A program made the position numbers and the translations under genes. A stretch of 32,000 bases of DNA, taken from NCBI RefSeq assembly GCF_037902255.1, contig NZ_CP147990.1:3270001-3302000 (forward strand). Direction: 5' to 3'. The notes under the pieces were generated by a model. That model was not told the DNA's origin. It worked only from the letters and a program-made list of their open reading frames with translations, and made no database searches. Positions 1-17,034 of the stretch are shown in pieces. The DNA is from Candidatus Electrothrix sp. GW3-4 (GTDB taxonomy: Bacteria; Desulfobacterota; Desulfobulbia; Desulfobulbales; Desulfobulbaceae). The first letter of the stretch is position 1. Every line of letters starts with the position of its first letter.

Positions 1-917
1 TGCGAGTAGCCAACCCCATATACGACGTTGTTTTTAAATTCCTGCTGGGCGACATGCGCATCGCCAGGCTGATCCTCTCCAAAATCCTTGATCAGGAAAT
101 CGAAACCCTGGAGTTCAAGCCCACCGAGTTCAGAAAGAAGATAGGCCTGAATCTCACCGTCTTCCGCATCGACTTCTCCGCTGTGATCCTCCAGGAGGAC
201 GGCAGCCGCAAGCTGGTTCTGATCGAAATCCAGAAGGCCAAGCTGCCCACCGATATCATGCGCTTCCGCAAATATCTCGGCGGGCAATATCAAGACCCGA
301 ACAACGTCTACCCTACAGACGACGGCGCAGGCGAGAACGCCCTGCCCATCATCTGCATTTACTTCCTCGGACATCCTCTGGAACATACCGAGAGCCCGGT
401 GGTTAAGGTGCAACGCAGCTCTGTCGACGCAGCTACTCAGGAAGAATTGGCACATAAAGAAGAATTCATCGAAAGCCTCACCCACGACAGCTACATCATC
501 CAAATCCCCCTACTCAGAGAAAAGCGGCGAAACAATCTGGAGATCCTTCTCAGCATCTTTGACCAGAGCCGGCAGGCGTCGGACAGTCGGCATTTCCTCA
601 ATCTGAACGAGGAGGATTATCCCGAAGAATTCCGCATCGTCATTCGCCGCCTGCTCAAGGCCGCAGTGGAAGAAGATGTCTGCGACACAATGGATCTGGA
701 GGACGATATCCTTGATGAACTGGAGTCTCTGGAGCGGACTATCATTAAGAAAGATCAGGTCATTAAGGAAATACTTGCTGAGAAAGATGAAGCTCTGGAA
801 GAAAACGCCAAAGCTTTGGCGAAAAAGGATGAAGCCTTAGCCAGGGCCATACAGGCCCTTATCGATTCCGGGATGACGGAAGCTGAAGCGAAAAGCCGCC
901 TTGGCTTACCCTCCTGA
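1..917 (+). CDS. PD-(D/E)XK nuclease-family transposase-like protein (Rpn/YhgA-like); the 5' end runs off the window
   Basis: The frame of ORF 54..917 stays open back to base 3 (RVANPIYDVVFKFLLGD precedes the listed Met). An N-terminal PIYDxxFK motif and a D..(n)..LIEIQKAK core are typical of this family. The C-terminus is Ala/Glu/Lys-rich and coiled-coil-like. Confidence 0.65.
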   Translation, partial: RVANPIYDVVFKFLLGDMRIARLILSKILDQEIETLEFKPTEFRKKIGLNLTVFRIDFSAVILQEDGSRKLVLIEIQKAKLPTDIMRFRKYLGGQYQDPNNVYPTDDGAGENALPIICIYFLGHPLEHTESPVVKVQRSSVDAATQEELAHKEEFIESLTHDSYIIQIPLLREKRRNNLEILLSIFDQSRQASDSRHFLNLNEEDYPEEFRIVIRRLLKAAVEEDVCDTMDLEDDILDELESLERTIIKKDQVIKEILAEKDEALEENAKALAKKDEALARAIQALIDSGMTEAEAKSRLGLPS

Positions 918-1051
918 AATAAAGAATCGGCAATTAACTATATACTGTTGGCTGATGCGTCTCCTTTCAGAGCCTTAATTCGACCTCAATGATTCGCGAT
1001 AGAACTTCACCCCACATTGACAAACCCCACTCTGTGGTTACCTTATCATGT

Positions 1052-1121
1052 AAAGGCGGCTGAAAAGTTATTCCTCCAAGAAGACCAAACAAGCATCTGA
1101 TCCCATATTTCAGCCGCCTTT
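1052..1121. repeat. Perfect 14-bp inverted repeat (aaaggcggctgaaa / tttcagccgccttt) separated by 42 nt
   Basis: The arms at 1052-1065 and 1108-1121 are exact reverse complements. The repeat lies in non-coding DNA between the transposase-like gene and a binding-protein gene remnant. Confidence 0.6.
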
Positions 1122-1173
1122 ATCTCCTCTTCTCTCATCCCGCAAAAGACACGCTATTTTTTCACGCCCCAGC

Positions 1174-1360
1174 TCAGGAAGCATCAGCTGCCGGATAAAG
1201 AAGCGCAAATACCTTCTTGATCCCTTCCAGCATACCCAGCGTAGGCCGTGACACCAGCTTCTCATCAATCAGAAAGACCTGATTTCCTTGAACAGCCTTG
1301 ATTATCTGAAAGTTCGGTTCCTTACGGATCATCTCCGTGCGGAATCGGTTAAAGGAGGTT
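1174..1360 (-). pseudogene. 3'-terminal remnant of a BtuF/FecB-like periplasmic binding protein gene, paralogous to 5939..6868
   Basis: The minus-strand translation FNRFRTEMIRKEPNFQIIKAVQGNQVFLIDEKLVSRPTLGMLEGIKKVFALLYPAADAS* aligns with the C-terminus of the intact gene (AEIIRNEPGFQVIKAVQENQVFLVDEKLVSRPTLGLLEGIRRVLDILYP). No upstream coding continuation, start codon or signal peptide is present. Confidence 0.65.
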
Positions 1361-1454
1361 GACCCGAATGAACTGACGCCGAGGCAGGCGCAGGATCTAC
1401 GCTATGAGCTGGCAGGTCTTTTAGAACAAGAAGAATAAAAAGGCGGGAGTAGAA

Positions 1455-1490
1455 GAATGAAGCGAATACTCTCATGCATCCGCTTCATTC
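1455..1490 (-). terminator. Possible terminator hairpin after the small-protein gene 1512..1886
   Basis: A perfect 10-bp inverted repeat (gaatgaagcg / cgcttcattc) with a 16-nt loop sits about 20 nt past the stop codon. The T-run is not immediately adjacent, so support is weak. Confidence 0.3.
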
Positions 1491-1511
1491 AATGCTGGAA
1501 GAGCATATCTC

Positions 1512-1886
1512 CTATTGAAACTCAGTTGGGGCAAAGACGTGAACCAGCCCATCAAGATTGGTCGGATCTGAAAGTGACTGCATGAGCTCAGGCATAATAG
1601 CACCCTGCATCACAGGGATCATGATAGCCTGCATAGGAAGTTGCTCCCCTACCGGGGCTGTGGTGTCAACAGTAGATTGGGTTGCCATCACACTTGTTCT
1701 CACGTTATTCCTCATAGTAACGACGTCCGGGCTACCAACAACGGTACTCACAGGATCCGCAATCAGGGGATCCGTTGCAGATATAGGCGGTTGAATGAAC
1801 GCTGCTGCTGCCTGATTAACAAAGGCCGTATACGAGAGCACCATCAGTAATAATCCACAATATATCATTTTTTTCATCTGTAACAT
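1512..1886 (-). CDS. Small secreted Met-rich protein, subfamily 2 (S/TDPxI N-terminus, DG...APxxF tail)
   Basis: An A-tract plus GGAGG Shine-Dalgarno precedes the ATG. The signal peptide is MLQMKKMIYCGLLLMVLSYTAFVNQAAA. The mature region carries PPISATDPLIADPVSTVV, then a Met-rich core (MQAIMIPVMQGAIMPELMQ), then the tail SDPTNLDGLVHVFAPTEFQ. It is paralogous to 13240..13614, 16277..16672 and 17035..17385. Confidence 0.8.
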   Translation of the reverse strand: MLQMKKMIYCGLLLMVLSYTAFVNQAAAAFIQPPISATDPLIADPVSTVVGSPDVVTMRNNVRTSVMATQSTVDTTAPVGEQLPMQAIMIPVMQGAIMPELMQSLSDPTNLDGLVHVFAPTEFQ

Positions 1887-1940
1887 TTTTTCCTCCTTTT
1901 TTTTATTGATTAATAAGACCCTACATATTTCAGCGCAGTA

Positions 1941-2348
1941 TCATTGAAACAACTCTGCATCTGAGGGTGCAATACGTACCGCCATTCCATCCGGGTTATT
2001 GGGGTCAGAAAAACTCATCTTCTGAACAACTTCAGCATTAAGAAGTGTCATCATCGTTCCCCCGACCGTCCATCTCGCAAAGCTTTTTATATCTTCCCGT
2101 AATGGATTAGCTGTACTAAAGATATTAGCCGATGTATCTGCCAGGACCTCCGCCCTCTTGGCAATTTTAATATCCTTCACCTCTTGCCTTGCCTTCAAGT
2201 CTTCAATTTGCGTTGGTGTTAAAATATCATGAATTGAAGTCGGCAGAACAAGCTCTGCTGCCCTTACTTTACTGGCAATTCCCAACACTCCCAAAAACGC
2301 AAGCATAAGCCCCGCCTGCCGAAGAAGTACCTTTTTCTTGCGTATCAT
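1941..2348 (-). CDS. Small secreted protein, subfamily 1 (LPxSIHD + LTxxQ-like motif, with DG...IAP tail)
   Basis: I moved the start to the internal Met (MIRKKK), which is preceded by AAAAAAGGTGG. A signal peptide is followed by AELVLPTSIHDILTPTQIEDLK. The C-terminus is SDPNNPDGMAVRIAPSDAELFQ. Confidence 0.8.
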   Translation of the reverse strand: MIRKKKVLLRQAGLMLAFLGVLGIASKVRAAELVLPTSIHDILTPTQIEDLKARQEVKDIKIAKRAEVLADTSANIFSTANPLREDIKSFARWTVGGTMMTLLNAEVVQKMSFSDPNNPDGMAVRIAPSDAELFQ

Positions 2349-2447
2349 CACGCCACCTTTTTTATAATTATTCCTCACTGTCAAAGACTCTCTAACCTTG
2401 TCCTCACCCAAAATAGAGCGAGGTCCAGAGGCATCCTTGCTAACACG

Positions 2448-2801
2448 TTAGGATCCAGCACCAGCATCAGACAACTCACGCATCTTCTCTTTTGGTTGCG
2501 TCTGTTTCCTGACAGCTTCTTGTACGGCATTAACTATAGAGCGGCGGTTCATCGTCCCCATCATAGCCGAAGACCTGACAACAGCCTGATCACTCATTGC
2601 CTGCTTTCTCATCTCACGCTGAATCTCCCGAACAGCAAGATTCTCTCTAATCTCAGCAAGCTGATCCGATGTCAAGATTTCATGAATAGAGGTTGGAAGA
2701 TTTAACCTCGTTGCTTTAGCATGATCGACAAGCCCCATACAAAAAAAGAATACGGCCACGAACAGCCCAGCTCTCAGTCCTCCTTTCTTTCTCCTTAACA
2801 T
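2448..2801 (-). CDS. Small secreted protein, subfamily 1, tail-less variant
   Basis: I moved the start to MLRRKK, which is preceded by AAGGAGGGGGA. A signal peptide is followed by TRLNLPTSIHEILTSDQLAEIR. The protein ends ...ELSDAGAGS and lacks the DG..IAPxxF tail. It lies 26 nt downstream of collagen-like gene A. Confidence 0.75.
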   Translation of the reverse strand: MLRRKKGGLRAGLFVAVFFFCMGLVDHAKATRLNLPTSIHEILTSDQLAEIRENLAVREIQREMRKQAMSDQAVVRSSAMMGTMNRRSIVNAVQEAVRKQTQPKEKMRELSDAGAGS

Positions 2802-2827
2802 TCCCCCTCCTTTTTCATAAGCTACAA

Positions 2828-4438
2828 TTATCCTCCGCAATTATACGGCTCACATATTATTTTTCCTGCCGGATTAATCCCCTTCATGAACTCTCCTTCT
2901 GGACAAATCTGGCCTTGTTGGGTCTTTGGTAATGATAAAGGCTCGGGAGAAACACCTGATGATGTACCTCCTGCATCTTCCGGCTCTTTGTTCGGGTTCT
3001 GTGAGATATTAACATTACCTGGAGCCCCCTGGTCTCCGGGGTCGCCTTTATCGCCCTTGTCTCCCTTTTCACCCTGAGGACCTTGGACGCCAGGATCACC
3101 TTTGTCACCCTTGTCCCCTTTTTCTCCCTGCGGGCCTTGCTGTCCCATAGGACCTCGTGGACCAATGGGTCCCTGTAGTCCTCGAACCCCCTGAAGACCT
3201 TGGACGCCAGGATCACCTTTATCACCCTTGTCCCCCTTCTCTCCTTGAGGACCTTGAGCTCCGGTATCACCTTTATCGCCCTTGTCTCCCTTTTCACCCT
3301 GAGGGCCTTGGACGCCAGGGTCTCCCTTATCACCCTTGTCGCCTTTTTCACCCTGAGGACCTTGGACGCCAGGATCACCTTTATCGCCCTTGTCGCCTTT
3401 TTCACCCTGAGGACCTTGGACGCCAGGATCACCTTTATCGCCCTTGTCGCCTTTTTCACCCTGAGGACCTTGGACGCCAGGATCACCTTTAGCGCCCTTG
3501 TCGCCTTTTTCACCCTGAGGACCTTGGACGCCAGGATCACCTTTATCGCCCTTGTCGCCTTTTTCACCCTGAGGACCTTGGACGCCAGGATCACCTTTAT
3601 CGCCCTTGTCGCCTTTTTCACCCTGAGGACCTTGGACGCCAGGATCACCTTTATCGCCCTTGTCGCCTTTTTCACCCTGAGGACCTTGGACGCCAGGATC
3701 ACCTTTATCGCCCTTGTCGCCTTGAGGGCCTTGCGCTCCGGTATCACCTTTACTCGCCATTAAATCCCAACATCCCAGCGGAGTTGAGTCTTCAGCAGGA
3801 GAAGAACCCGCGATTGACTGGCAGCAGGTGTTTATATAAGAGCTTCCGTCGTATTGAACCATATTGCCAGAAAGATATACCTTGCTGGAACTCCATTGCC
3901 CTTTCCAGGAAAAATCCGTTTTCTCACATCCCCCCCCAGAGCTCGTCCCCAATCCATCCGAACAAACCTCAGCATAGGCAACAATATATACGGTATCCCC
4001 TAACAACGATGAAACATTGATCTCATATCTATCTTCATCAGCATCCACTAACTCTTCATGACTCTTGCCATATTGGCCAGGTGCTGCGTTAGAGATCTTC
4101 TTCTCCCCAACGTAGAGAGCGGTTTGACTCATCACCGTTCCAGCAAAGGTAAAAAAGGAGACCGTAACGAGTTCATCAAGATAGGTAATATGGAGCTTAC
4201 CTACCTGGCGCCCCTTACTGGTATCGTTTTTTGCTGCTCCTGCATAGATTGGTGTCTCGACTTCTTCACCATCTTTAATGGTAATCTGCCATCCCCATCG
4301 TTCTGTCTCGAGGAAGTCGTCGAGCTCCTCAGGACCAAAGGCGAATGCAGCCTCACAGCTTTCTTTTTGTCCAGATTGGACCGTGACCGGTACCAACAAA
4401 AGTAATGAAAAGAGTAATGCAGCAATCCTAATTTTCAT
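2828..4438 (-). CDS. Secreted collagen-like (Gly-X-Y triple-helix repeat) protein A
   Basis: I moved the start to [22 protein letters not shown], a signal peptide. The N-terminal region is about 210 aa and contains Cys (WGWQ..PIYAGA..LYVG..APGQYG). It ends in a CBM5/12-like pattern, W-x5-Y-x2-G-x2-V-x-Y-x-G-x2-Y. About 81 uninterrupted Gly-X-Y triplets follow, with the unit [19 protein letters not shown] 62-aa tail contains [20 protein letters not shown]. Confidence 0.9.
3017..3748 (-). repeat. Coding tandem repeat with 54-bp period (18 aa, 6 Gly-X-Y); about 10 near-identical units at 3196-3748 plus diverged units at 3017-3195
   Basis: The unit gaccttggacgccaggatcacctttatcgcccttgtcgcctttttcaccctgag recurs in register at 3196, 3250, 3304, 3358, 3412, 3466, 3520, 3574, 3628 and 3682. 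Several copies are identical or differ by 1-2 nt. Confidence 0.95.
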
Positions 4439-5112
4439 TTTTGTGTCCCCTTTTCCTTTTCCCCATTCCATACCCTTTATTTACCCTTTTTCACCATTAG
4501 GTTTTTAAGGTACAGCCAAATTAAAAAAAAGTACAGATAGAATCTATAAAAAAATACAGAAGAAAAAAATATTAAGGACTTACAGCGCGACTCTTCTTTC
4601 TGACAGATAAAAAAAGTGAACAATAACCAGGCAAAAGCTGGTTGCATAAAAAATGGCTGGCTGCGAAAGACTGCTGATGAAAGCAGATATTTTTTTGGTA
4701 ATTACACTATAATACAAACCCTACATTGTAGTATTTACCGAGAAACTGTTGCATTTTTGAAACAACTCCCCCAACTGACCGCCAGGTCTTGACAAAACCA
4801 ATAGCTTAAGATTAACTTACGCACTGTTAAGAATTTCAGCATTCCCGACCCAAAAAAAACGTCGTCGCCCTGTTCAGGCAGCGTAACTGTGCAGATTATT
4901 GAGAATATGGCCGAGCACGGCATCTCGAAGGAGTTGTTGCTAAGGGCATAAAAAAAACGTTTCGCATACACGTCCGCTCTTTTTCTGAGACGGTTAAAGG
5001 CCCCTTTGGCGATATCCTTTTATTCCAGCGCTTGCGGCCCCGTCAGGGAAACAAATCCTCTACTCAGTAACCACCCATTATCCTTAAAAAAGAATCAATC
5101 AGGTAATGATAT

Positions 5113-5829
5113 ATGAAAAAAGGACTATTGATTACATTGTTATGTCTCACAGCAACTTCTGTCTGGGCAAAAGGCGGATGGATTACGGACCCAACAACAA
5201 AATGTCAGGTTTGGGATCCCGACCCTACTCCTAACCAGTCATTGACCTGGAACGGAGAGTGCAAAAATGGAAAAGCAAACGGCGAGGGCATTGCCAAGTG
5301 GCATGAGGGGAATAAAGTAGTCACGAGTATACAAGGAGTCATGAAAGATGGGCGTTGTCAGGGAGAATGCGTTGCGCTTGCCATCTTTGGAAAAAGTACG
5401 TTCAAATATGTTGGTCAGTTAGGAGATAATGACTTACATGGCAAAGGGACCCTTACCTGGCCGGACGGCAACGAGTACTCAGGGGACTGGGTTGAAGGGA
5501 AACGACACGGTACAGGTAAATTTGTCTGGAAAAATGGGACAGAATATATTGGTGACTGGAGAAATGACAAGACTAACGGTAAAGGGACATATACCTGGGT
5601 TGACCGTGACGAAAAAAAATATATTGGTGACGTGAAAGACGATAAGTTTCACGGAAACGGGGTGATGTTTTATGCAAACGGTAATAAATATTCAGGAAGC
5701 TGGGCCAACGGAAAACGGGACGGTAAAGGAACCTATACCTTTAAGGACGGAACTGTCTATAAGGGGATATGGGAAAACGGGAAGAGGATACAGCTTTTTC
5801 CCCGACTACGAGACTTCCTCTTCTGGTAG
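5113..5829 (+). CDS. Secreted MORN-repeat protein A
   Basis: The signal peptide is MKKGLLITLLCLTATSVWA. A Cys-containing N-terminal segment is followed by tandem MORN units (YxGxWxxGKxHGxGxxxWxxG). It is paralogous to 15047..15769. Confidence 0.85.
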   Translation: MKKGLLITLLCLTATSVWAKGGWITDPTTKCQVWDPDPTPNQSLTWNGECKNGKANGEGIAKWHEGNKVVTSIQGVMKDGRCQGECVALAIFGKSTFKYVGQLGDNDLHGKGTLTWPDGNEYSGDWVEGKRHGTGKFVWKNGTEYIGDWRNDKTNGKGTYTWVDRDEKKYIGDVKDDKFHGNGVMFYANGNKYSGSWANGKRDGKGTYTFKDGTVYKGIWENGKRIQLFPRLRDFLFW

Positions 5830-5938: not shown

Positions 5939-6868
5939 TCACTTCCCCTCTTCCCTCTCCTTCTTCTCAGGAGCTATCTGGACGGGGTAGAGGATATCTA
6001 AAACCCTTCTGATTCCCTCAAGCAAGCCCAAAGTTGGTCGCGACACCAGCTTCTCATCAACCAGAAAAACCTGATTTTCCTGTACCGCTTTAATAACCTG
6101 AAACCCAGGCTCATTACGAATTATCTCCGCAGTGACCTTGTTCATCCGCCCTTCCTGAGCCAGAAAAACATCAATCATTTTTGCCTTAGCCAGGATACGC
6201 TCCTTCCCGTACTCCGCAATATTACTCTTGCGTACCTGAACAGCGTCCGCAGCCACGTTAATCCCCCCTGCGGATTCCAGAACAAACATCGCCATAGACT
6301 CCGGGGCAAAGGTCTTCATCCGCTTATGGATGGATTCAAAATAGACCTTTTTCCTCTTTGCAGCAGGAATGCGTTCCACCTGTCGGTTGATCTCCACAAG
6401 CCCGGTCCCGAAGCGGGCAATCATCTGTGAAGCCTCATCCTGGTGCCCGCTCAGGACACCGAGGTTCTCCCAGTATCGGAACATTTCATCCACAGAGGTG
6501 GGTTGCAACGAAACCACTGTCACACCATTCTCCTCTAGACGTTCCACCATTTGCGGATAAGAACGGCTGAGCATGGGACGGATCAGAACAAGATCCGGCT
6601 TCAGGGCCAACAGACGTTCCGGGTCATCCCGAAAACTGAGCGTAGGCAGATCAGGCAGTTGCTTATCACTGCGCCCTACTGCCACAATTTGCTCCCCTGC
6701 CCCCATGTCGATCAGGTTACGGGTATGGGCAGCATACAGAGAAATGATCCGTTGACAGGACTTATTCAGCTGGACCACCTTGCCGTCATTATCAATGATC
6801 GGCTCTCCAAAGGCAGGGACAGCCAGCAGGCAAGAAAACAGGAGAGCAATAAGAATATGTTTCAGCAT
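5939..6868 (-). CDS. ABC transporter periplasmic substrate-binding protein (BtuF/FecB-like, corrinoid/iron-complex type)
   Basis: A signal peptide is present. The motifs RIISLYAAHTRNLIDMGAGEQIVAVG and KPDLVLI are typical of class III binding proteins. It is the last gene of the riboswitch-headed operon. Confidence 0.8.
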   Translation of the reverse strand: MLKHILIALLFSCLLAVPAFGEPIIDNDGKVVQLNKSCQRIISLYAAHTRNLIDMGAGEQIVAVGRSDKQLPDLPTLSFRDDPERLLALKPDLVLIRPMLSRSYPQMVERLEENGVTVVSLQPTSVDEMFRYWENLGVLSGHQDEASQMIARFGTGLVEINRQVERIPAAKRKKVYFESIHKRMKTFAPESMAMFVLESAGGINVAADAVQVRKSNIAEYGKERILAKAKMIDVFLAQEGRMNKVTAEIIRNEPGFQVIKAVQENQVFLVDEKLVSRPTLGLLEGIRRVLDILYPVQIAPEKKEREEGK

Positions 6869-7050
6869 TTTTTCCTCTTGGTTTTATGGGCAAGGTTGTA
6901 TACCCGAGGTCTGGCCTCAGGCTGATATATTCCGCCTTTTCAGGGCGGCCTCCGTAACAAAGAACCCTGAAAGGGTTCAACATGACCAGCTCAGGGAAAC
7001 ACCCTGAGTATAAAATGGAAATTATAGCGTTTCGGGTTTCGACTCCTCAA

Positions 7051-7854
7051 TCATGCAGCTGGCAGCCTGTAACTTACCTGATAGCAAGCGGAAAAGCTTT
7101 CCTTCCGCACCTGCGCTTCCACGCCATAGACCTCCTCTATGACCTCAGGACGCAGTACCTCCTCAGTCGGCCCTTGGCAGATAATCCGCCCGTTTTTCAA
7201 AAAAATTAATTCATCACAGAAATATGCTGCCAGATTGAGGTCATGAATTGCAGCAACCACGGTCAGGCCCTGCTCCACAACCCGATGACGAATCAGGGCC
7301 AGGATGGACAGGGAATGATAAATATCCAGATTCGAGGTGGCCTCATCAAGGAGCAGCACCTCCGGGTCCTGGACCAGGGCCCGAGCCACAGCGACCCGCT
7401 GCTTTTCCCCACCAGACAGCCGGGTTACCGAACGAGCCGCAAATCCGGCCACGCCCATTTCCTCCATCACCGCATCAACCAAGGCATGCCCCTGTTCAGT
7501 CAGGGAGGAGAATCGACCGAGATGGGGATGACGCCCCATCTCCACCACTTCCCGCACAGAGAAACCAAAGCGAACCTGGAAATCCTGGGGCACCAAAGCA
7601 ACCCGTTTGGCCAGTTCCCGCGCCTGCCATTGTTTGAGCAGGGTTTCGCGATAGCTGATTTCCCCTTTCTCTGCGACAGCCAGACCACAGAGCAGATCAA
7701 GCAGAGTGGTCTTGCCGCTGCCGTTCGGCCCGAGGATACCGTAACATTTCCCGGCAGACAGGGTAAGATCTATTCCGGCTAAGACGGGCTGATCCTTGTA
7801 GGAGAACGCGACCTGCTCCAACTGCCAGAGGATATCAGAAGCAATTCTATCCAC
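7051..7854 (-). CDS. ABC transporter ATP-binding protein (BtuD/FecE/HmuV-like)
   Basis: It has Walker A GPNGSGKTTLL, the ABC signature LSGGEKQRV and Walker B LLLDEATSNLD. Its start overlaps the stop of the permease gene. Confidence 0.9.
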   Translation of the reverse strand: MDRIASDILWQLEQVAFSYKDQPVLAGIDLTLSAGKCYGILGPNGSGKTTLLDLLCGLAVAEKGEISYRETLLKQWQARELAKRVALVPQDFQVRFGFSVREVVEMGRHPHLGRFSSLTEQGHALVDAVMEEMGVAGFAARSVTRLSGGEKQRVAVARALVQDPEVLLLDEATSNLDIYHSLSILALIRHRVVEQGLTVVAAIHDLNLAAYFCDELIFLKNGRIICQGPTEEVLRPEVIEEVYGVEAQVRKESFSACYQVSYRLPAA

Positions 7855-8903
7855 TAGCCATTTTCCTGCTGTCGTTTTTTAAAGATATAAGCAAAGAACG
7901 GTCCACCGATAAGGGCGGTCAAAACCCCGATGGGAACCTCTGCCGGGAGCACAGCCCTGGTAACGGTATCGGCCAGGAGCAGAAGCAGCCCCCCACCCAA
8001 TGTGGAGAGAATGATCAGCTGGCGATTATCCGGGCCGATAAGATGGCGAAGGAGATGAGGGACAATCAAACCAACAAAACCGATAATTCCCGAGACCGAG
8101 ACACAGAGCGCCGTCATCAGGGAACAGGTGACAAGAAGAATCCAGCGCAGACGCACCGTATTCACGCCAAGGGTAGCGGCTGCCCTTTCTCCAGTGGCCA
8201 TGATATTCAAATCGCGGCTGTAGAACAGGCAAACCGCCATGCCGATCAGGGCCACAGGCAAGAGAAGGAGGATATTCTGGCGGGAAATTCCGGAAAGGGA
8301 GCCCATGAGCCAGAAAATAATAATACCGACTTGCTCGTCAGCAATAAATTTCAGAAACCCGATGGCTGCGGACAGGATAGCCGCCACAATCACTCCAGAC
8401 AGGATCAGACTGGTTGAAGAAAGCCGTCGGTCTTCAGAGGCAAGGGCCAAGACCGTAAACAGGGTCCCGATACTGCCCAAAAAGGCAAAGATCGGCACAG
8501 AAAGCGTTGACGGCAGAGCCAGCCCAACCACCTGGAGGACAATGACCAGGGAGGCTCCAAAGGCCGCACCTGAGGAAATCCCCAGAGTGTAGGGGTCTGC
8601 CAGCGGATTAAGGAGAATAGCCTGAAACACCGTGCCGCAGAGGGCCAGCATCCCCCCGACCAGCACTGCCGCCAAGATGCGGGGCAGACGCACATCCATA
8701 ACCACTGCCGTAACCACCGGATCAAATCCGGCATCCTTGCCGCTGAAAGAAAAAGCATGTCCGATGAGCTGCAAAACAGTTGCTGCGGGGATCTGCATAA
8801 ACCCCATAGTGGCTGACACAACCACAGCAACAAGCAGGAGGAGACACATGCCTCCCCCTGCTGCCCAAGAGAATCCTGACCGTGCAACCATTGATATCCG
8901 CAT
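7854..8903 (-). CDS. ABC transporter permease, FecCD/BtuC family
   Basis: The protein is polytopic and hydrophobic with FecCD-type motifs (DPYTLGISSGAAFGA, GIIGFVGLIVPHLLR). It is tightly packed between cbiK and the ATPase gene. Confidence 0.85.
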   Translation of the reverse strand: MRISMVARSGFSWAAGGGMCLLLLVAVVVSATMGFMQIPAATVLQLIGHAFSFSGKDAGFDPVVTAVVMDVRLPRILAAVLVGGMLALCGTVFQAILLNPLADPYTLGISSGAAFGASLVIVLQVVGLALPSTLSVPIFAFLGSIGTLFTVLALASEDRRLSSTSLILSGVIVAAILSAAIGFLKFIADEQVGIIIFWLMGSLSGISRQNILLLLPVALIGMAVCLFYSRDLNIMATGERAAATLGVNTVRLRWILLVTCSLMTALCVSVSGIIGFVGLIVPHLLRHLIGPDNRQLIILSTLGGGLLLLLADTVTRAVLPAEVPIGVLTALIGGPFFAYIFKKRQQENG

Positions 8904-8905
8904 CT

Positions 8906-9898
8906 TTATTTCATCACAATTTCCGCATCTGCGGTGGCATCACTGGCATGCCGGACAAAGATCTCCGCAAAGGCATCCAGCTCACCAAGCCCTCTCTTCA
9001 CCGGGACAACTTCGAAGCCTTCCTTTTCCAGAATCATCTGCCAGGACGGTTCCTCTGGATCGGTGCCAGCCATATCATTCATGGCGTGATCTCCGGCCAC
9101 GACCATGCAGGGCTTGAGCATCACCTTTTTCACGCCGCGCATTTTCAGCTTATCAATCACATCCTCAAGCGAAGGAAAGCCCTCTACATTACCGATCAGG
9201 GTGGTCACCTCAGGGTAGAGCTCCCGCATCCGGTCGGCAAGCTCAAGGTAGGCCCCTCCAGAGGGAAAATGCGCATTACCGTGTCCCATGTAGACCAGGG
9301 CTGCCCTTTCCTTGGCTGCCAGCTCGGCATCCGCAGCCAGAGCCTCTGCCGCAGCTGTGATATCTTCGGCATAGGGATGTTTCAAACCGTAGGTACCCAA
9401 GGCAGGGCGCCCGAGCACGACCTTATGAAAAGGTTTATATTTTTCTTTTTTTACCGTACCGAGATGCATCAGACTCTCCACATAGGTGCCGAGGTCAAGA
9501 AATTCTTCGCCCATAGCGATGTGGGTGGGCTGAATGACTATGGTGTCGTAGCCGATGTTTTGCAGGTCGGCAATGGTGGCCAGTACGGTTTTCACATGTA
9601 GGACATCTTCCGGGATTTCTGGATGCGCCTTGCTATAGGCGGGGTCCTCAGCCCGTCCCTGCCATTTCTTGCGGATGATATTGGAGGTGAAGGCAATTTT
9701 CACCGGGGTCTCCGGGTACTTCTCCATCATCTTGGTGCGGATATTCAGCAATCCTTGCAGAGCAGGCTCGACTGTTGTGCCGAACATGGCCAAAACAATG
9801 GCGTTTTTATGCTTCACCTTCCATCCCTCACTTGCCAGAGGAGCTTTTGCGCTGCACAGCAGCACGATCATAGCCAGAAACAACGAACGTAACTTCAT
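8906..9898 (-). CDS. cbiK: Sirohydrochlorin cobaltochelatase CbiK-type protein with an N-terminal signal peptide (periplasmic form)
   Basis: I moved the start to MKLRSLFLAMIVLLCSAKAPLAS, which is preceded by AGGGAG. The CbiK signatures are YMGHGNAHFPSGGAY and LKPCMVVAGDHAMNDMAG. Confidence 0.8.
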   Translation of the reverse strand: MKLRSLFLAMIVLLCSAKAPLASEGWKVKHKNAIVLAMFGTTVEPALQGLLNIRTKMMEKYPETPVKIAFTSNIIRKKWQGRAEDPAYSKAHPEIPEDVLHVKTVLATIADLQNIGYDTIVIQPTHIAMGEEFLDLGTYVESLMHLGTVKKEKYKPFHKVVLGRPALGTYGLKHPYAEDITAAAEALAADAELAAKERAALVYMGHGNAHFPSGGAYLELADRMRELYPEVTTLIGNVEGFPSLEDVIDKLKMRGVKKVMLKPCMVVAGDHAMNDMAGTDPEEPSWQMILEKEGFEVVPVKRGLGELDAFAEIFVRHASDATADAEIVMK

Positions 9899-9949
9899 GG
9901 GAATCTCCCTATCTTGTGCTGATCCGGGAGTTTTGATAGCATCAGCCAT

Positions 9950-10019: not shown

Positions 10020-10196
10020 TCAGGCCTTTGCCGAGGTTACTGAACATCTTTTTCAGGCAGGTTTTCTGACTTCCGGCTCTTTCTCCCCTGCGCCTTCCCG
10101 CCTGTTACAGACAGTGACATTATGCAGGTTCGTCCCCGGTTACAGCGGCGGGCCCGTCCCGGATTCACACCGGGTTCCCTTTTCATCCGACCATAT
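10020..10196 (-). promoter_or_regulatory. Cobalamin (B12) riboswitch aptamer
   Basis: Read on the minus strand, the core is AAAAGGGAACCCGGTGTGAATCCGGGACGGGCCCGCCGCTGTAACCGGGGACGAA. A B12-box-like GCCGGAAGTCAGAAAACCTGCC lies at 10056-10077. It sits upstream of the cbiK/ABC transporter operon. Confidence 0.85.
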
Positions 10197-10345
10197 AGTT
10201 ATATGTAACGGACACCTGAAAACAGACAATACTGTAGTCAAGGTAAGCAACGAAGTCAAGGAGGGAATGGTCATCACACCGCCCGATAAGGTCAGAAAAG
10301 GTATTTCCATCCTATCCCTCCGCACCTTATGATTTTTTTATATTC

Positions 10346-11046: not shown

Positions 11047-11430
11047 TCAGAAAGGGCCAGGTGCTATCTTGACCGGCATTCCATCCGGGGATGCCGGATC
11101 AGCCAAGGCCTGCATCTGCACAGCCATGTGTTCGTTTCGAGTCTGGCTACTTATCGCAGCGCCTATCTTCAATCCAACCTCCTGGTTTACAAGCCCTATC
11201 AAGGGCCTATTTTGGGCTTGTTCGGTCATGACATCCCCCCGTATGCCATTCTTTATATCACTGAGCTCCTGGCTATTCTTTATTTGATCAACTTGCTCCG
11301 CACTCAGGAGGTCGTGAATTGAACCAGGAAGACTTATATCAATGGCCTTGGCGTTATCTGCTGAGCCTATGCAGGTAGCCAGTGTAATCAGTAGCGCTGC
11401 CCTTATAAGGATTACTTTTTTTACTTTCAT
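11047..11430 (-). CDS. Small secreted protein, subfamily 1 (with DG..IAP tail)
   Basis: AAAAAGGGAGG precedes the ATG. A signal peptide is followed by IDISLPGSIHDLLSAEQVDQIK. The C-terminus is ADPASPDGMPVKIAPGPF. It lies 68 nt downstream of collagen-like gene B. Confidence 0.8.
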   Translation of the reverse strand: MKVKKVILIRAALLITLATCIGSADNAKAIDISLPGSIHDLLSAEQVDQIKNSQELSDIKNGIRGDVMTEQAQNRPLIGLVNQEVGLKIGAAISSQTRNEHMAVQMQALADPASPDGMPVKIAPGPF

Positions 11431-11498: not shown

Positions 11499-12917
11499 TC
11501 AACTCTGATCGGGCGCCGCTGTCACGGGTTCACATATAAGCCTGCCAGCAGAGTCTATCCCCCTGACCCACTCTCCTTCAGGGCATAGTTGTCCCTTTGG
11601 AAGAGGGAGGGGACTCAAGCCGCCCCCTGAAGCTGGATCCAGCTCTTGTGGATTGACCTTATCTTTTCCAATGGTATCAAACCGTTCTCCTTTTGCCCCT
11701 TGGGCTCCGGGATCGCCTTTTTCACCTTGAGGCCCCTGGATGCCAGGCTCCCCCTTATCACCCTTGTCCCCTTTTTCTCCTTGAGGGCCTATAGGTCCCC
11801 TGGGGCCAACAGGGCCTATGCGGCCTATAGGTCCTATTTTTCCTTGTATCCCCTGATCACCCTTTTCTCCTTTCGGCCCCTGAGCTCCGGCATCACCTTT
11901 ATCACCCTTGTCCCCTTTTTCTCCTTGAGGACCCTGGGCTCCGCCATCACCTTTATCACCCTTGTCCCCTTTTTCTCCTTGAGGACCCTGGGCTCCGGCA
12001 TCACCTTTATCACCCTTGTCCCCTTTTTCTCCTTGAGGACCCTGGGCTCCGGCATCACCTTTATCACCCTTATCCCCTTTTTCTCCTTGAGGACCCTGGA
12101 CGCCAGCATCACCTTTATCACCCTTGTCCCCTTTTTCTCCTTGAGGACCCTGGACGCCAGCATCACCTTTATCACCCTTGTCCCCTTTTTCTCCTTGAAG
12201 ACCCTGGACGCCAGCATCACCTTTACTCACCATGAGATCCCAGCATCCCTGAGGACCAAGATCATCTTGAGGAGGAACTCCCTGCATTGATTCGCAACAG
12301 GTATTTATATATGCGCTGCCATCATGTTGTACCATATTTCCAGCGAGATAAACCTCACCAGGACCCCATACCCCTCCCCAGGAGAAATCGATTTCTTCGC
12401 ATTCGTTTCCTGATTTAACTCCCGGTTCTTCTTTTACGCATACCTCTGCATAAGCAACAAGATACAAAGTCCCACCTGCATAAGAGGAGACATCAAATTC
12501 GTAGTTATCCTCATCAGTATTGAACAGGTCCTTATGGCTATTGCCGTACTGACCAGGTGCAGCAGTTGAAACATATCGGTCCCCCACATAGAGATGCGTT
12601 GCACTGAGAACATAATCGTTAAACAGGGCATAGGAGACCGTCAGCGTATTGTTCTGGTAGGAAACATGAAGGTCACCAACATGGGTAGCCTTATCAAGGC
12701 TGTTCCCCCCGGCACCTGCATAGATCGGCGTGTCATAATTATCGTTTTCTTTAAGGGTAAGCTGCCATCCCCATTTCTTTGTATCAAGAATCGAACTGAG
12801 TTCATCAGCGCCATAAGCGTAGGCACCTTCGCAGGATCCTGCCTCTCGGGAGTGGGCATTTACCGACGACAATAGCAAAAAAGCTAATAGCAGCAATCGG
12901 ATATTATTCTTTTTCAT
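11499..12917 (-). CDS. Secreted collagen-like (Gly-X-Y) protein B, paralog of 2828..4438
   Basis: I moved the start to MKKNNIRLLLLAFLLLSSVNAHS, which is preceded by GGGAGG. The architecture matches protein A, and the Cys positions and the WGWQ/PIYAGAG/LYVG/APGQYG motifs are conserved. The same CBM5/12-like pattern is present. About 60 Gly-X-Y triplets follow, with the unit [16 protein letters not shown](V/A)Q. The tail contains CPEGEWVRGIDSAGRLICEP. Confidence 0.9.
   Translation of the reverse strand: MKKNNIRLLLLAFLLLSSVNAHSREAGSCEGAYAYGADELSSILDTKKWGWQLTLKENDNYDTPIYAGAGGNSLDKATHVGDLHVSYQNNTLTVSYALFNDYVLSATHLYVGDRYVSTAAPGQYGNSHKDLFNTDEDNYEFDVSSYAGGTLYLVAYAEVCVKEEPGVKSGNECEEIDFSWGGVWGPGEVYLAGNMVQHDGSAYINTCCESMQGVPPQDDLGPQGCWDLMVSKGDAGVQGLQGEKGDKGDKGDAGVQGPQGEKGDKGDKGDAGVQGPQGEKGDKGDKGDAGAQGPQGEKGDKGDKGDAGAQGPQGEKGDKGDKGDGGAQGPQGEKGDKGDKGDAGAQGPKGEKGDQGIQGKIGPIGRIGPVGPRGPIGPQGEKGDKGDKGEPGIQGPQGEKGDPGAQGAKGERFDTIGKDKVNPQELDPASGGGLSPLPLPKGQLCPEGEWVRGIDSAGRLICEPVTAAPDQS
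11682..12221 (-). repeat. Coding 54-bp tandem repeat of collagen-like gene B (near-identical units at 11876-12221)
   Basis: The unit gaccctgggctccggcatcacctttatcacccttgtcccctttttctccttgag recurs in register at 11876, 11930, 11984, 12038, 12092 and 12146. Confidence 0.95.
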
Positions 12918-13239
12918 GATAATCCTCCCTGGTAATGGCGAAAGTAGCAACCCGGCTGTCTCTCGCATTGAGACCCGTGGCTTTCCGGCACCACCTCGCG
13001 GCGGTTGTGGTTTTATGTAATCTTTCTGAGTCGAACTCCTCCAATCGGCTCTGACCAGGAAAGACTGACTGTTTTTTAGAAACAGATGTTACAAATACTC
13101 TTTACAAATATTCAGCTATAATGACTCATTATATCATTGGCTATCCTCAAGGCGGGGCAAGAGGAATCACCGCATCCCTTCCGCAATGACTCCTCTCCGT
13201 ATAAATGTCGGTTTTAAACACGCCTTGGTGAAACCTGCC

Positions 13240-13614
13240 TTATTGTGTAAAAACCGGTGGGGCAAGCAAGGCAACCATGCCATCCGGATTATTCCGGTCA
13301 GAAAGCGTAGCCATCATCTGATCCTGAACCTGGGACTTGATCTGATCCTGCATGATCGTCGTCATCATGGGTTCCAGCACAGGTCGCATGGGTTTTGCGG
13401 CGCTCTGGGTATCAATAACCTGATCTCTCATACTATTCTTCATATCAACGACCTGGCCATTGCCCACTACTTGACTCACTGCATCCTGAATCAACGGGTC
13501 ACTTGAGGACACAGGAATACCGATATCTATCGCCAGCACCTGATTCGCCGGAATTGCAATAAGGGAAAACAACAGGACAATTTTAACAGCCGTTATTTTT
13601 TTGATACGTAACAT
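13240..13614 (-). CDS. Small secreted Met-rich protein, subfamily 2
   Basis: I moved the start to MLRIKK, which is preceded by AAGGAGG. A signal peptide is followed by IDIGIPVSSSDPLIQDAVSQVV. The Met-rich core is PMRPVLEPMMTTIMQDQIKSQVQDQMMATL, and the tail is SDRNNPDGMVALLAPPVFTQ. Confidence 0.8.
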   Translation of the reverse strand: MLRIKKITAVKIVLLFSLIAIPANQVLAIDIGIPVSSSDPLIQDAVSQVVGNGQVVDMKNSMRDQVIDTQSAAKPMRPVLEPMMTTIMQDQIKSQVQDQMMATLSDRNNPDGMVALLAPPVFTQ

Positions 13615-13736
13615 GGTGAATCCTCCTTTTTTCATTGTAAGCAGTAATTGCTCACTTCTTTCTTGCGGTCTCCTACCGCCTTCAAACATTGGTACTTTCT
13701 CTTATTTCAAACAGAGACTCGCCATCTTGTCCGGCA

Positions 13737-14093
13737 TCACTCCTGGTTGTCCGGATCAGATGCCGCACCCATTTGCGCCGTTCCATTGCCAATCTGAAAA
13801 CGTCCACTGACTTCTTTATCAACCACACCTCCAAGGACACCGCTCATAACCATCTTTGCGGCTGGCTTTTTGGCGACCTGCTCAGTTATCACCTGCCCCC
13901 TCATGCCGTTCCGTATCGCCAGGAGAGCAGGATCGGCCTTGACCGTTTCAATCTGCTCGGAGGTCAATACATCATGAATGGAAGATGGGAGAGTAATCTC
14001 CAATGCCCAGGCCTTACCTGTCAAACCTATGCATACAGACAATGCGCTCAACAACGCTGTCTTCGCAAATATATTCTTTTTTACCTGCAACAT
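13737..14093 (-). CDS. Small secreted protein, subfamily 1, tail-less variant
   Basis: AAAAAAAGGAGG precedes the ATG. A signal peptide is followed by LEITLPSSIHDVLTSEQIETVK. The protein ends ...AASDPDNQE and lacks the DG..IAPxxF tail. Confidence 0.75.
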   Translation of the reverse strand: MLQVKKNIFAKTALLSALSVCIGLTGKAWALEITLPSSIHDVLTSEQIETVKADPALLAIRNGMRGQVITEQVAKKPAAKMVMSGVLGGVVDKEVSGRFQIGNGTAQMGAASDPDNQE

Positions 14094-15046: not shown

Positions 15047-15769
15047 ATGCGAATAATACTTGTAATATTAACACTTTTATCCCTTCCAGCACCGTCCACC
15101 TATGCACAAGGAGAGTGGGTTATTGACCAAGAGACTCAATGTCAGGTGTGGGATTCTGACCCAAAGCGGAACCAGTCTATAACGTGGTCTGGGAAATGCC
15201 AAAACGGCAAAGCTCATGGTGAGGGCGTTGCGAGCTGGCACGAGGGAAACAAAGTGGTTGCCAGCATAAAAGGAAACATGAAAGAAGGTCGTTGCCAAAG
15301 TGAAGATTGCCTTGTGACAATTGCAGCAGGAAACAAAGAAGTAAAATATATCGGCCAACTCAAGGATAACGACCTACATGGTAAGGGAACATTAACCTGG
15401 CCCGATGGTAACGAATATTCAGGTGACTGGCTTAAGGGAAAGAGACATGGCAAGGGCAAGTTTACCTGGAAGAACGGTACGGAATACAATGGCGATTGGC
15501 AAGATGATAAAAGTACCGGTAAAGGGACATTTATTTGGGTTGACCGTGATGAAAAAAAATATATTGGTGAAGTGAAGGACGGTAATTTTCACGGAAATGG
15601 CGTCATGTTATACACAAACGGCGATAAATATTCAGGAAGCTGGGCTGACGGCAAGCGACACGGCAAGGGAAACTACACCTTCAAAGATGGTACTACCTAC
15701 AAAGGAATATGGGAGAACGACAAGAGGATACAGCTGTTTCCTCGGTTAAGAGATTTTCTGTTTTTGTGA
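15047..15769 (+). CDS. Secreted MORN-repeat protein B, paralog of 5113..5829
   Basis: GAGGAGAG precedes the ATG. The signal peptide is MRIILVILTLLSLPAPSTYA. The repeat layout matches protein A, and the C-terminal tail RIQLFPRLRDFLF is identical. Confidence 0.85.
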   Translation: MRIILVILTLLSLPAPSTYAQGEWVIDQETQCQVWDSDPKRNQSITWSGKCQNGKAHGEGVASWHEGNKVVASIKGNMKEGRCQSEDCLVTIAAGNKEVKYIGQLKDNDLHGKGTLTWPDGNEYSGDWLKGKRHGKGKFTWKNGTEYNGDWQDDKSTGKGTFIWVDRDEKKYIGEVKDGNFHGNGVMLYTNGDKYSGSWADGKRHGKGNYTFKDGTTYKGIWENDKRIQLFPRLRDFLFL

Positions 15770-16276: not shown

Positions 16277-16672
16277 TCAATCAAATGTCGGTGCTATCAT
16301 ATTAGGTATTCCTTCTGGACTCGCAGCATCCTGCATTGCGGCCATTTGCGTTTTTCTCGTCTTATCTCGCGTCTCCTGCCGTACCCTTGTGCTGACCACT
16401 TCACTAATTGCGTCTCCCATAGGACGAAGCAAAGGAAGTCGCTTGGCCTGCTCTTCTTTTATCCTATCCCTTGTTTGACGCATTATCGCCTTCACATCAA
16501 TACCATTCATATCAACATCAGTCTTAACGCTGTCCACAACCCCCTGAATTTCCGGATCATCAGATGGTAGAGGAATATTGATATTCTGCGCCTGTGCAGC
16601 ATTAACACCTGCAACAGCAGCCAAGGAAATAGCCAAGGCTAGATTCATTGATATTTTTTTTAAGTGCAGCAT
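16277..16672 (-). CDS. Small secreted protein, subfamily 2 (diverged, charged core)
   Basis: I moved the start to MLHLKK, which is preceded by AAAAAAAAAGGAG. A signal peptide is followed by NINIPLPSDDPEIQGVVDSVK. The tail is DAASPEGIPNMIAPTFD. The upstream part of the listed ORF (16673-16807) is covered by repeat E4. Confidence 0.75.
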   Translation of the reverse strand: MLHLKKISMNLALAISLAAVAGVNAAQAQNINIPLPSDDPEIQGVVDSVKTDVDMNGIDVKAIMRQTRDRIKEEQAKRLPLLRPMGDAISEVVSTRVRQETRDKTRKTQMAAMQDAASPEGIPNMIAPTFD

Positions 16673-16728
16673 AGTCTCATCTCCTTTTTTTTTCGATAGT
16701 ACTAACCAACTCGCTTTTTCTTGATAAC

Positions 16729-16814
16729 ACTCATCCCTTCCCTTGGGGAGGGACAACAAAGCATGAAAGGTGCTCAGACGATCCCAAGGAGTCGTCGGTA
16801 CTTTCATATAAAAT
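16729..16814 (-). repeat. Structured intergenic repeat, copy E4 (5' of gene 16277..16672)
   Basis: Read on the minus strand: TTATATGAAAG-TACC[GACGActccttgggaTCGTC]TGAGCA-CCTTTCATGCTTTGTTGTCCCTCCCCAAGGGAAGGGATGAG. Confidence 0.7.
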
Positions 16815-16920
16815 TATCCGCTTTAAAAATTCTTCTGGAGTTACTACTCATCGACAGAAACAAGGCCAATGAATAAAAGATATTTTTATAAAATGACTGA
16901 TCAGAAGTATCTCTTTTTTC

Positions 16921-16964
16921 TCAAAAACATTTACACGGGAGACCAACAGGACCTCCCGTGTAAA
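16921..16964 (-). terminator. Intrinsic terminator after gene 17035..17385
   Basis: A perfect 12-bp stem (TTTACACGGGAG / CTCCCGTGTAAA, arms at 16930-16941 and 16953-16964) is followed on the minus strand by TGTTTTTGA. Confidence 0.75.
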
Positions 16965-17034
16965 CTTTCGCAACAGATTAAATAAAGAAAAAAGTGCAAG
17001 CTTCACACCTTTTTCTTACAGGATCCCCTACAGC

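Follow-up and report, generated by a model that had tools for sequence, protein, structure and literature searches.

A collagen-like protein family of cable bacteria joining a beta-sandwich domain, a CBM5/12-type module, a Gly-X-Y stalk and a C-terminal cysteine hairpin

A gene in the genome of the cable bacterium Candidatus Electrothrix sp. GW3-4 encodes a collagen-like protein in which a probable signal peptide is followed by a predicted beta-sandwich N-domain, a carbohydrate-binding module (CBM) of the 5/12 type, an unbroken Gly-X-Y stalk, a linker and a C-x16-C hairpin. The gene, here called gene A (product, protein A), lies in a stretch of 32,000 nucleotides (contig NZ_CP147990.1, positions 3,270,001 to 3,302,000), which was analysed at its full length and is referred to as the window. 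The layout had been proposed in an initial annotation made from the sequence alone, as signal peptide, beta-rich Cys-containing head, CBM5/12-like stretch, charged stalk and Cys-loop tail, and every part of it turned out to be right. Each of the three ingredients, collagen-like proteins, CBM5/12 modules and GEMM-I riboswitches, is familiar; the novelty lies in the combination of parts, the restriction of named members to cable bacteria, an N-domain that is widespread and unnamed, the conserved Cys-hairpin past the stalk, and a tie to small secreted proteins of cable bacteria. On balance, protein A is probably an envelope or surface fibre that serves attachment, the building of matrix or sheath, or spacing.

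Domain architecture of protein A

The longest open reading frame (ORF) of gene A opens at 4471, and the ATG at 4438 is the likely start because GGAAAAGGGGA, which resembles a ribosome-binding site (RBS), precedes it and because homologs begin at the equivalent MK or MN; the longer start was dropped on the same grounds. Protein A has a probable Sec-type signal peptide, recognised in the sequence by an n-region with K/R that leads into a hydrophobic core, with small residues in positions -3 and -1, and is predicted to be exported. This signal sequence is the sole hydrophobic window of the protein. Motif checks of the whole protein found no lipobox and no LPXTG, only LPKTQ, so that lipoprotein or sortase anchoring was dropped, and the earlier statement that LPXTG, lipobox and transmembrane anchor are all absent holds. 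Likewise, Pfam and a motif scan found neither an autotransporter barrel nor the tail of a type IX secretion system (T9SS) substrate in protein A. Cysteines are located in the head (28, 159, 171, 205, 206 and 223) and in the tail (512, 529 and 534). An exact-sequence database look-up gave zero matches with either start codon, and a promoter and terminator scan of positions 900-5200 was uninformative (1 promoter-like site against 5.4 expected).

The head was modelled with AlphaFold2 (AF2) over residues 23-231 from a 40-sequence alignment (mean predicted local distance difference test score, pLDDT, 89.3), giving two domains with a low-confidence linker between them at residues 164-169. The N-domain is predicted to be all-beta, with pLDDT mostly above 90, and C28 and C159 sit on its first and last strands; the pair is at least 90% conserved among the 40 aligned domains. 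A full-library search with the whole-head profile retrieved 2344 cluster representatives at E<=1e-3, of which 980 reach E<=1e-10, and most of the best 150 matches align via the N-domain. Its carriers include Gemmatimonadota, Methylobacter, Bacteriovoracaceae, Myxococcales, Bacteroidota and others, where it is usually C-terminal in proteins of about 330 residues. One of the five N-domain-containing relatives scanned carries a T9SS sorting tail and HYR-like domains, and another carries PT linkers; the cable-bacterial N-domain proteins all begin with signal peptides. Judged by sequence, the N-domain is a widespread module with no Pfam family (as tested on two relatives made up of the N-domain), no NCBIfam model and no credible sequence relative in the PDB (the queries being the head and the 40-sequence alignment). 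MATH/TRAF, ephrin-receptor ligand-binding and lytic polysaccharide monooxygenase-like sandwiches resemble it weakly in Foldseek (TM <=0.29 on the full query), and it is therefore assigned to no fold family.

The CBM5/12-like motif of the initial annotation is upheld by four independent lines of evidence, with a score just below the Pfam cut-off. Pfam CBM_5_12 (PF02839) covers residues 181-224, or profile positions 1-43 of 44, at E=3.4e-4 and 21.0 bits in whole protein A and at E=1e-5 and 25.9 bits in the isolated module, which is 0.3 bits short of the gathering score of 26.2 bits. The same model matches 15 of 15 family modules at E<=0.1 (best 6.7e-6). In addition, the proteins found with the head profile include some in which the module is repeated 10-31 times, and three of these multi-repeat relatives (P0013, P0036 and P0077) match CBM_5_12 at E=5.5e-65, 9.2e-58 and 1.7e-31, respectively. 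The best PDB sequence match of the module profile is the chitin-binding domain of ChiA1 (1ED7, E=0.003), followed by CBM12 domains of chitin deacetylases. Structure prediction returned the CBM-like fold that the annotation implied: the module, with pLDDT of about 73-93, shows the small antiparallel beta-sheet of chitin-binding domains, and Foldseek superimposes it on the MmChi60 chitinase (9fbp_A) with a root-mean-square deviation (rmsd) of 1.2 Å over 45 columns and probability 1.0, and on several phage ChiC_BD proteins with rmsd of 1.3-2.2 Å. A word-indexed search with a 64-residue module profile found nothing at E<=1e-3, the profile being too short for a database of 5.8e9 sequences. Profile matches and the structure model support CBM5/12 homology and fold for the module. 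It contains four cysteines, the vicinal C205 and C206 with C171 and C223 on either side, that co-vary, in that members with a single Cys instead of CC often do not have the first Cys; the simplest reading of this pattern is that two disulfides staple the module.

The Gly-X-Y run opens directly after CWDLMASK. The initial annotation placed it there correctly and rightly called it uninterrupted, and its count of 81 triplets is to be corrected to 82, namely 81 to GAP plus GNV. Pfam Collagen (PF01391) scores 146.8 bits on protein A against a cut-off of 27.2 (E=1.5e-43). The stalk is encoded by a 54-bp tandem repeat in 12.4 copies, with a dominant protein unit of 18 residues. Its 246 residues include 37 Asp, 11 Glu, 35 Lys and 2 Arg, which makes it 35% charged with 11% Pro, and 34 KGD motifs are present at a net charge of -11 per chain; the dominance of charged pairs noted earlier is borne out. 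Lys-Gly-Asp pairs stabilise triple helices, as in Scl2 and model peptides. At 0.286 nm per residue, the predicted stalk length is about 70 nm. About three-quarters along the stalk, the charged repeats are interrupted by an uncharged, Arg- and Ile-rich island, which is also present in paralog B (encoded elsewhere in the window), the Electrothrix laxa ortholog and the family member P0006, and which might stabilise the helix as a clamp or offer a site for a ligand.

Past the stalk, a Pro/Ser/Glu-rich linker that differs in length and sequence between family members leads to the C-terminal Cys-loop. In an AF2 model of the tail built from an alignment of 8 sequences, the loop is predicted to be a beta-hairpin (pLDDT 73-86) with C512 and C529 at its ends. 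Of the 13 members whose sequence extends to the stalk end, 12 have the motif C-x2-G-[EDQ]-[FYWI]-x2-G-x4-G-x3-C at 5-36 residues past the collagen run, and three family members have a GVCTC cluster flush with the helix end. A third tail cysteine, C534, is common to protein A, P0006 and P0015. The C-terminal position after the helix is where trimerisation domains nucleate and lock triple helices. By analogy, we infer that the hairpin registers and locks the C-terminal ends of the chains. The T4 fibritin foldon and collagen cystine knots share with it a short C-terminal hairpin or Cys cluster past the helix, which is a functional analogy with no sequence homology shown; unlike them, the hairpin of protein A is modelled as closed by its own disulfide.

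Members of the family and comparison with known systems

The nearest homologs of the protein A head come from Candidatus Electrothrix and are 71% identical. In a scan of one genome per species across 185,579 species, which gave 26 confirmed loci, the full two-part head was found only in cable bacteria, namely Electrothrix sp. MFD10219, E. laxa, Electrothrix YB6 and Electronema halotolerans. Named cluster members add Electrothrix AR3 and AR5, Electronema sp. TJ and Electronema sp., and all named members of the full architecture belong to Electrothrix or Electronema. In databases they are annotated as 'hypothetical protein' or 'collagen-like protein'. The family is defined by an N-domain with its terminal Cys pair, a CC-type CBM that directly abuts the Gly-X-Y run, and a C-x16-C hairpin beyond the stalk, and these are found in members of two types. 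Type i consists of head, stalk and hairpin (protein A, paralog B, the E. laxa ortholog, P0006 and P0015). Type ii has a second N-domain past the hairpin (P0004, P0007, P0009, P0011 and the members from YB6 and Electronema halotolerans); P0011 has CP where others have CC, and the YB6 member reaches 1287 residues with 291 triplets. Across paralogs and species the stalk ranges from 60 to 291 triplets, or from 51 nm to about 250 nm and longer still in Electronema, roughly a five-fold span among orthologs and paralogs. The variable length fits an outward-projecting fibre better than a fixed-size part. The Electronema halotolerans member (OW818675, locus L005) is very long, with hundreds of triplets, a hairpin and a second N-domain, and its gene is split by an insertion with transposase-like ORFs, so that it may represent a pseudogene or result from an error of assembly.

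Among characterised bacterial collagens, streptococcal Scl1/Scl2, Legionella Lcl and Bacillus BclA resemble protein A in having a long unbroken Gly-X-Y stalk between globular parts, no hydroxyproline, high charge, low proline, many Lys-Gly-Asp pairs and tandem-repeat length polymorphism. The NCBIfam models for Lcl, SclA and SclB align to its repeat region. The scores stay well below their cut-offs: Lcl (NF046116) gives 165.7 bits against 500, over residues 212-387 only, and the Scl models NF038330 and NF038329 give 151.9 against 400 and 137.2 against 325, on the repeats only. Protein A has no LPXTG anchor, Scl V-domain, Lcl C-terminal domain or C1q-like domain of BclA; the BclA_C C1q/TNF-like model has no match in it, and its C-terminus is a 25-residue Cys-hairpin. 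The head of N-domain and CBM5/12-type module and the Cys-hairpin are specific to the cable-bacterial family, whose host is a diderm Desulfobulbaceae filament.

Canonical CBM5/12 domains, such as those of ChiA1 (1ED7), Moritella MmChi60 and a Vibrio chitin oligosaccharide deacetylase, share with the module of protein A the pattern W-x5-Y-x2-G-x2-V-x-Y-x-G-x2-Y, the terminal Trp and the small beta-sheet fold. In contrast to them, the module of protein A adds four Cys, carries CC for WW and is changed at the W687 position, and it is fused directly to a triple-helix repeat whereas the canonical domains are fused to an enzyme.

Genomic setting and cyclic-dinucleotide aptamers

On the coding strand of gene A, a cobalamin riboswitch is followed by a periplasmic CbiK, a FecCD permease, an ATPase, a binding protein, a MORN protein, collagen A and three small secreted proteins (Table 1). 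The order of CbiK, ABC transporter, MORN and collagen genes is kept in three Electrothrix genomes (the window, E. laxa and MFD10219), and the divergent arrangement of the MORN gene and collagen A is conserved in E. laxa and Electrothrix MFD10219. In E. laxa the locus ends in mutS, and the ortholog of gene A likewise precedes three members of the small-protein family. On the far side of the CbiK operon lies a second cassette comprising a MORN gene, small-protein genes, a riboswitch, collagen B and a further small-protein gene, and two more small-protein genes follow between it and glycogen phosphorylase. Paralog B has the same architecture as protein A, with a head 54% identical. Collagen cassettes thus flank the CbiK operon on both sides in the window, and the operon itself has the same position in at least four other Electrothrix genomes. 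The E. aestuarii and E. aarhusensis-type syntenic locus has only two small-protein genes, with no MORN or collagen gene. Being duplicated in the window and missing at the same locus elsewhere in Electrothrix, the cassette is therefore accessory and recombining rather than core. The GC content of the window shows no island boundary.

Table 1. Coordinates of gene A, its parts and neighbouring features. Positions are those of the window unless a locus handle is given.
Feature	Position	Strand	Remarks
Gene A, longest ORF	2828..4471	-	
Gene A, product from ATG at 4438	2828..4438	-	536 aa
Signal peptide, residues 1-22	4373..4438	-	Read from sequence; signal peptidase I site probable after VQS
N-domain, residues ~27-160	3959..4360	-	135 aa; AF2 model, closed by C28/C159
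CBM5/12-type module, residues 171-230	3749..3928	-	~60 aa; Pfam, PDB profile, Foldseek
Collagen-like stalk, residues 231-476	3011..3748	-	82 unbroken Gly-X-Y triplets
Uncharged island of stalk, residues ~430-453	3080-3150		
Linker, residues 477-511	2906..3010	-	Predicted disordered, AF2 pLDDT <50
C-terminal Cys-loop, residues 512-529, then EPYNCGG and stop	2828..2905	-	AF2 beta-hairpin
Small secreted protein 1	2448..2801	-	Family profile A4, E=5e-41; likely ATG 2801
Small secreted protein 2	1941..2348	-	Family profile match
Small secreted protein 3	1512..1886	-	Family profile match
Eight small-protein paralogs of the window, by region	1512-2840; 11047-11430; 13240-14093; 16277-17385	-	
MORN-repeat secreted protein beside gene A	5113..5829	+	Pfam MORN E=7.7e-35
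MORN-repeat secreted protein, second cassette	15047-15769	+	Paralog; both ~238-240 aa
CbiK-type chelatase with signal peptide and FecCD/ABC/periplasmic-binding-protein transporter	5939-9949	-	
Cobalamin riboswitch	10039-10234	-	129 bits
Paralog B	11499..12917	-	472 aa, 60 triplets
GEMM-I cyclic-dinucleotide aptamer, leader of paralog B	12943..13021	-	Rfam RF01051, 52.8 bits against gathering score 35
Six further aptamers before N-domain genes	L003 7108-7186, 12252-12330; L011 9758-9832; L016 125-202; L017 9306-9382; L018 500-579		
Stand-alone N-domain protein, E. aarhusensis-type locus	L030 14938-15630	-	184 aa
N-domain protein in two fragments	L031 14847-15083 and 16142-16630	-	
Electronema halotolerans OW818675 member	L005 2386-11335		Insertion at ~3598-4601
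Phage JS10 YP_002922525	L032 1204-2211		'tail fiber protein'
ORF at cassette border	54-917	+	287 aa
HEAT/cyclic-nucleotide-binding/PilZ protein	27870-30194	-	774 aa
COR-B ORF	31240-31944	-	234 aa

The small secreted proteins, eight paralogs of which are encoded in the window, have about 95 mature residues with an N-terminal LPxSIHDxL, a Met/Gln-rich middle and a C-terminal SDPxNPDGxxxxAP. The listed ORF of the first of them overlaps the stop codon of collagen A. All 34 clusters of this family with a named source come from Electrothrix except one record labelled Desulfobulbus sp. US2, and no match was found in Pfam, NCBIfam or PHROG. In E. aarhusensis-type loci, a stand-alone secreted N-domain protein lies beside the transporter, and in the related locus L031 the N-domain protein is split into two fragments, which suggests domain shuffling and decay at this slot. 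The ORF at the cassette border has no Pfam or PHROGs family match. Further along the window, one ORF matches only the COR-B domain of ROCO proteins; a full LRR-Roc-COR gene occurs near the cassette in E. laxa.

The leader of paralog B contains a GEMM-I aptamer 26 nt upstream of the ATG. It has A where Vc2 has G20, and the P1 pairs are compensated (C-C with G-G). G20A marks the GEMM-Ib aptamers of Geobacter, which bind cyclic GMP-AMP (cGAMP) and are often bispecific (PMC6140456). By its A at the G20 position, the paralog B aptamer is a candidate of this cGAMP type. GEMM-I or GGC-variant aptamers precede 7 of the 11 cable-bacterial N-domain genes examined, paralog B included. The other six stand before both YB6 collagen genes, an E. 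aarhusensis gene for an N-domain-collagen protein and the genes for N-domain proteins of about 338 residues in E. marina, E. laxa and another Electrothrix; G20 is retained in all of them, and Rfam assigns four to the c-di-GMP-I-GGC variant, for which we know of no validated ligand. No GEMM-I aptamer was found in 11 loci from other phyla. From these sequence matches, the arrangement looks like a lineage-specific cyclic-dinucleotide regulon of N-domain genes. Paralog B and the six genes resemble known GEMM-I regulons, for instance Vibrio gbpA and the cGAMP/GEMM-Ib exoelectrogenesis genes of Geobacter, and gene A, having no aptamer, differs from them. In the minimum free energy fold of the leader of paralog B, the Shine-Dalgarno sequence is base-paired to the 5' half of stem P1b of the aptamer, which suggests an ON switch in which the Shine-Dalgarno sequence would be sequestered in the ligand-free state; as a whole, this fold does not stand out statistically (z = -0.7). 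The two orthologs of gene A likewise have no aptamer upstream, and in a three-species leader alignment the only conserved element of gene A is the RBS. The window also encodes a further protein of cyclic-nucleotide signalling, 774 residues long, with HEAT repeats, a cyclic-nucleotide-binding domain and a PilZ domain, a receptor of cyclic di-GMP (c-di-GMP).

Proposed role and competing explanations

As an envelope or surface fibre, protein A would be exported by Sec, and three chains would zip into a triple helix of about 70 nm. The helix would be held by salt bridges of the Lys(Y)-Gly-Asp(X') type and by a clamp at the conserved uncharged GPIGPRGP island instead of hydroxyproline, and the C-terminal hairpin, with the extra Cys534 in protein A, may register or covalently lock the three chains. 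The far end would then present a multivalent head for binding, composed of three copies each of the N-domain and the CBM-type module, and the fibre could bind a polysaccharide or a different surface ligand and act as an adhesin, as part of a matrix or as a spacer. In the family, c-di-GMP or cGAMP, which as a rule control surface-attached behaviour, may tune the output; gene A may be the constitutive copy. A surface or envelope role is favoured because of the T9SS tail in one N-domain relative, the variable stalk length, the accessory nature of the cassette and the surface-type signals of the riboswitches.

Several observations weigh against this role. The consensus WW and W687 of ChiA1 are surface aromatics that stack on chitin; in all 15 family modules WW is replaced by CC (or CP), and the position aligned with W687 is Ser, Val, Ile or Ala. 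Ligand binding by the module is accordingly unproven on the aligned sequences, and a glycan-binding head can only be inferred. Foldseek with the two-domain model found no PDB structural relative of the N-domain at E<=1e-3. An Rfam scan by E-value found no aptamer upstream of gene A, so the regulatory argument covers the family and not gene A itself. Beyond the Sec signal, no route across the outer membrane is evident for protein A. Furthermore, a literature search found no paper that ties collagen-like proteins to cable bacteria, and the supplements of PMC13047784 and PMC11976967 contain no 'collagen', 'MORN' or 'CBM' entries.

Because no outer-membrane route is evident, a periplasmic location has to be considered, and the main competing explanation, which is rather unlikely, is that protein A is a periplasmic strut tethered to peptidoglycan. 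Here the CBM-type module would grip glycan strands containing N-acetylglucosamine (GlcNAc), and the rod would space structures apart or tie them together, for instance where two cells join or next to the conductive fibres of the periplasm. Such a strut would account for a Sec signal that is accompanied by neither an autotransporter barrel nor a T9SS tail, lipobox or sortase signal, and for the Sec signals of the neighbouring MORN and small proteins; the module family binds beta-1,4-GlcNAc polymers, and the elaborate structures in the periplasm and at the junctions of cable bacteria still await assignment of their proteins (PMC11976967). However, the roughly five-fold spread of stalk length is hard to fit into a compartment of fixed width, and the absence of the cassette from the E. 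aestuarii and E. aarhusensis-type locus rules out a universal structural part. The T9SS secretion tail of an N-domain relative from another phylum and the loss of the chitin-contact aromatics also argue against the strut.

A bolder version of the fibre reading is a long shot. According to it, the rods and the small secreted proteins would together build a hallmark structure of the cable-bacterium envelope, and their production would be switched by cyclic dinucleotides in the manner of the Geobacter exoelectrogenesis genes; this structure could be the surface layer or sheath, the lamellae of the junctions, or a non-conductive scaffold holding the nickel-containing fibres.

It is improbable that protein A serves as a scaffold for metal handling or conduction, with its cysteines and acidic stalk binding Ni or another metal supplied by the CbiK-type chelatase, the ABC transporter and the Met-rich small proteins, and with the fibre as part of, or template for, the nickel-containing conductive fibres. 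Each chain has eight conserved cysteines including the vicinal pair C205/C206, the signal-peptide-bearing CbiK and the FecCD-type transporter adjoin the gene in three genomes, Met and Gln abound in the small secreted neighbours, and the protein components of the conductive fibres are unidentified (PMC11976967). Nevertheless, the cysteines are arranged as expected for structural disulfides: relatives in many phyla have the C28/C159 pair that closes the sandwich, the four cysteines of the CBM change in concert, and C512 and C529 stand at the two ends of the hairpin. The CbiK operon has a cobalamin riboswitch of its own, which points to corrinoid or cobalt supply, and nickel has been modelled in dithiolene-type complexes and not in Cys-protein sites (10.1101/2025.10.10.681601). 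The cassette is, moreover, missing at the locus in other conductive Electrothrix species, and being accessory in Electrothrix it is unlikely to be the conduction machinery itself.

Parts of protein A also match phage fibre proteins. The whole protein matches many PHROG tail-fibre families (best phrog_5073, E=4.6e-100), and these strong scores are due to the Gly-X-Y repeats; the N-domain has no PHROG match. The CBM part of the head alone matches phrog_5073 at E=5e-5 and a tail-fibre protein of phage JS10 at 39% identity over 56 residues, and Foldseek finds phage 'collagen triple helix repeat' proteins besides the ChiC_BD proteins. Remote relatives of the CBM-to-collagen junction thus do occur in phage fibre proteins. 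In JS10 the module lies between two collagen segments and ends in YWALLASQG-AQGEQG, nearly equal to the cable-bacterial junction; both conform to a module ending [CY]W-x-L-[ML]-A-S-[KQ]-G that runs straight into Gly-X-Y. The recurrence of this junction indicates that the module tolerates a place flush with a triple helix. The 'tail fiber protein' gene of Escherichia phage JS10 adjoins Hoc-like head-decoration genes. The phage fibres lie among virion genes and have no signal peptide, N-domain or Cys-loop, whereas gene A is chromosomal and its product is predicted to be exported. As the initial annotation had stated, there is no phage context: the neighbouring genes tested gave no PHROG tail or other virion match (the MORN protein matches a family of unknown function only), and the closest homologs are not prophage tail fibres but chromosomal cable-bacterial genes in housekeeping synteny. 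It is highly improbable that protein A is a phage-derived fibre, be it the tail fibre or the receptor-binding protein of some prophage, tailocin or phage remnant, and not a cellular structural protein; this reading was rejected on context and signal peptide, given equal synteny in three genomes beside the CbiK/ABC operon with its cobalamin riboswitch (and mutS in E. laxa), a GC content that shows no island boundary, and a Sec signal needless for virion proteins assembled in the cytoplasm.

The family of envelope or surface fibres proposed here bears on organisms of unusual build. Cable bacteria conduct electrons over centimetres, and their envelope has ridges, periplasmic fibres, junction lamellae and a putative surface layer to which almost no structural proteins have been assigned. 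The analysis documents a large domain family, with its 2344 representatives found mostly via the N-domain, and a CBM5/12-to-collagen junction that recurs in phage fibres. Taken together, the collagen-like family, its domain grammar, its small secreted partners and the riboswitch input of paralogs offer candidates for localisation by antibodies and for proteomics of sheath or skeleton fractions.

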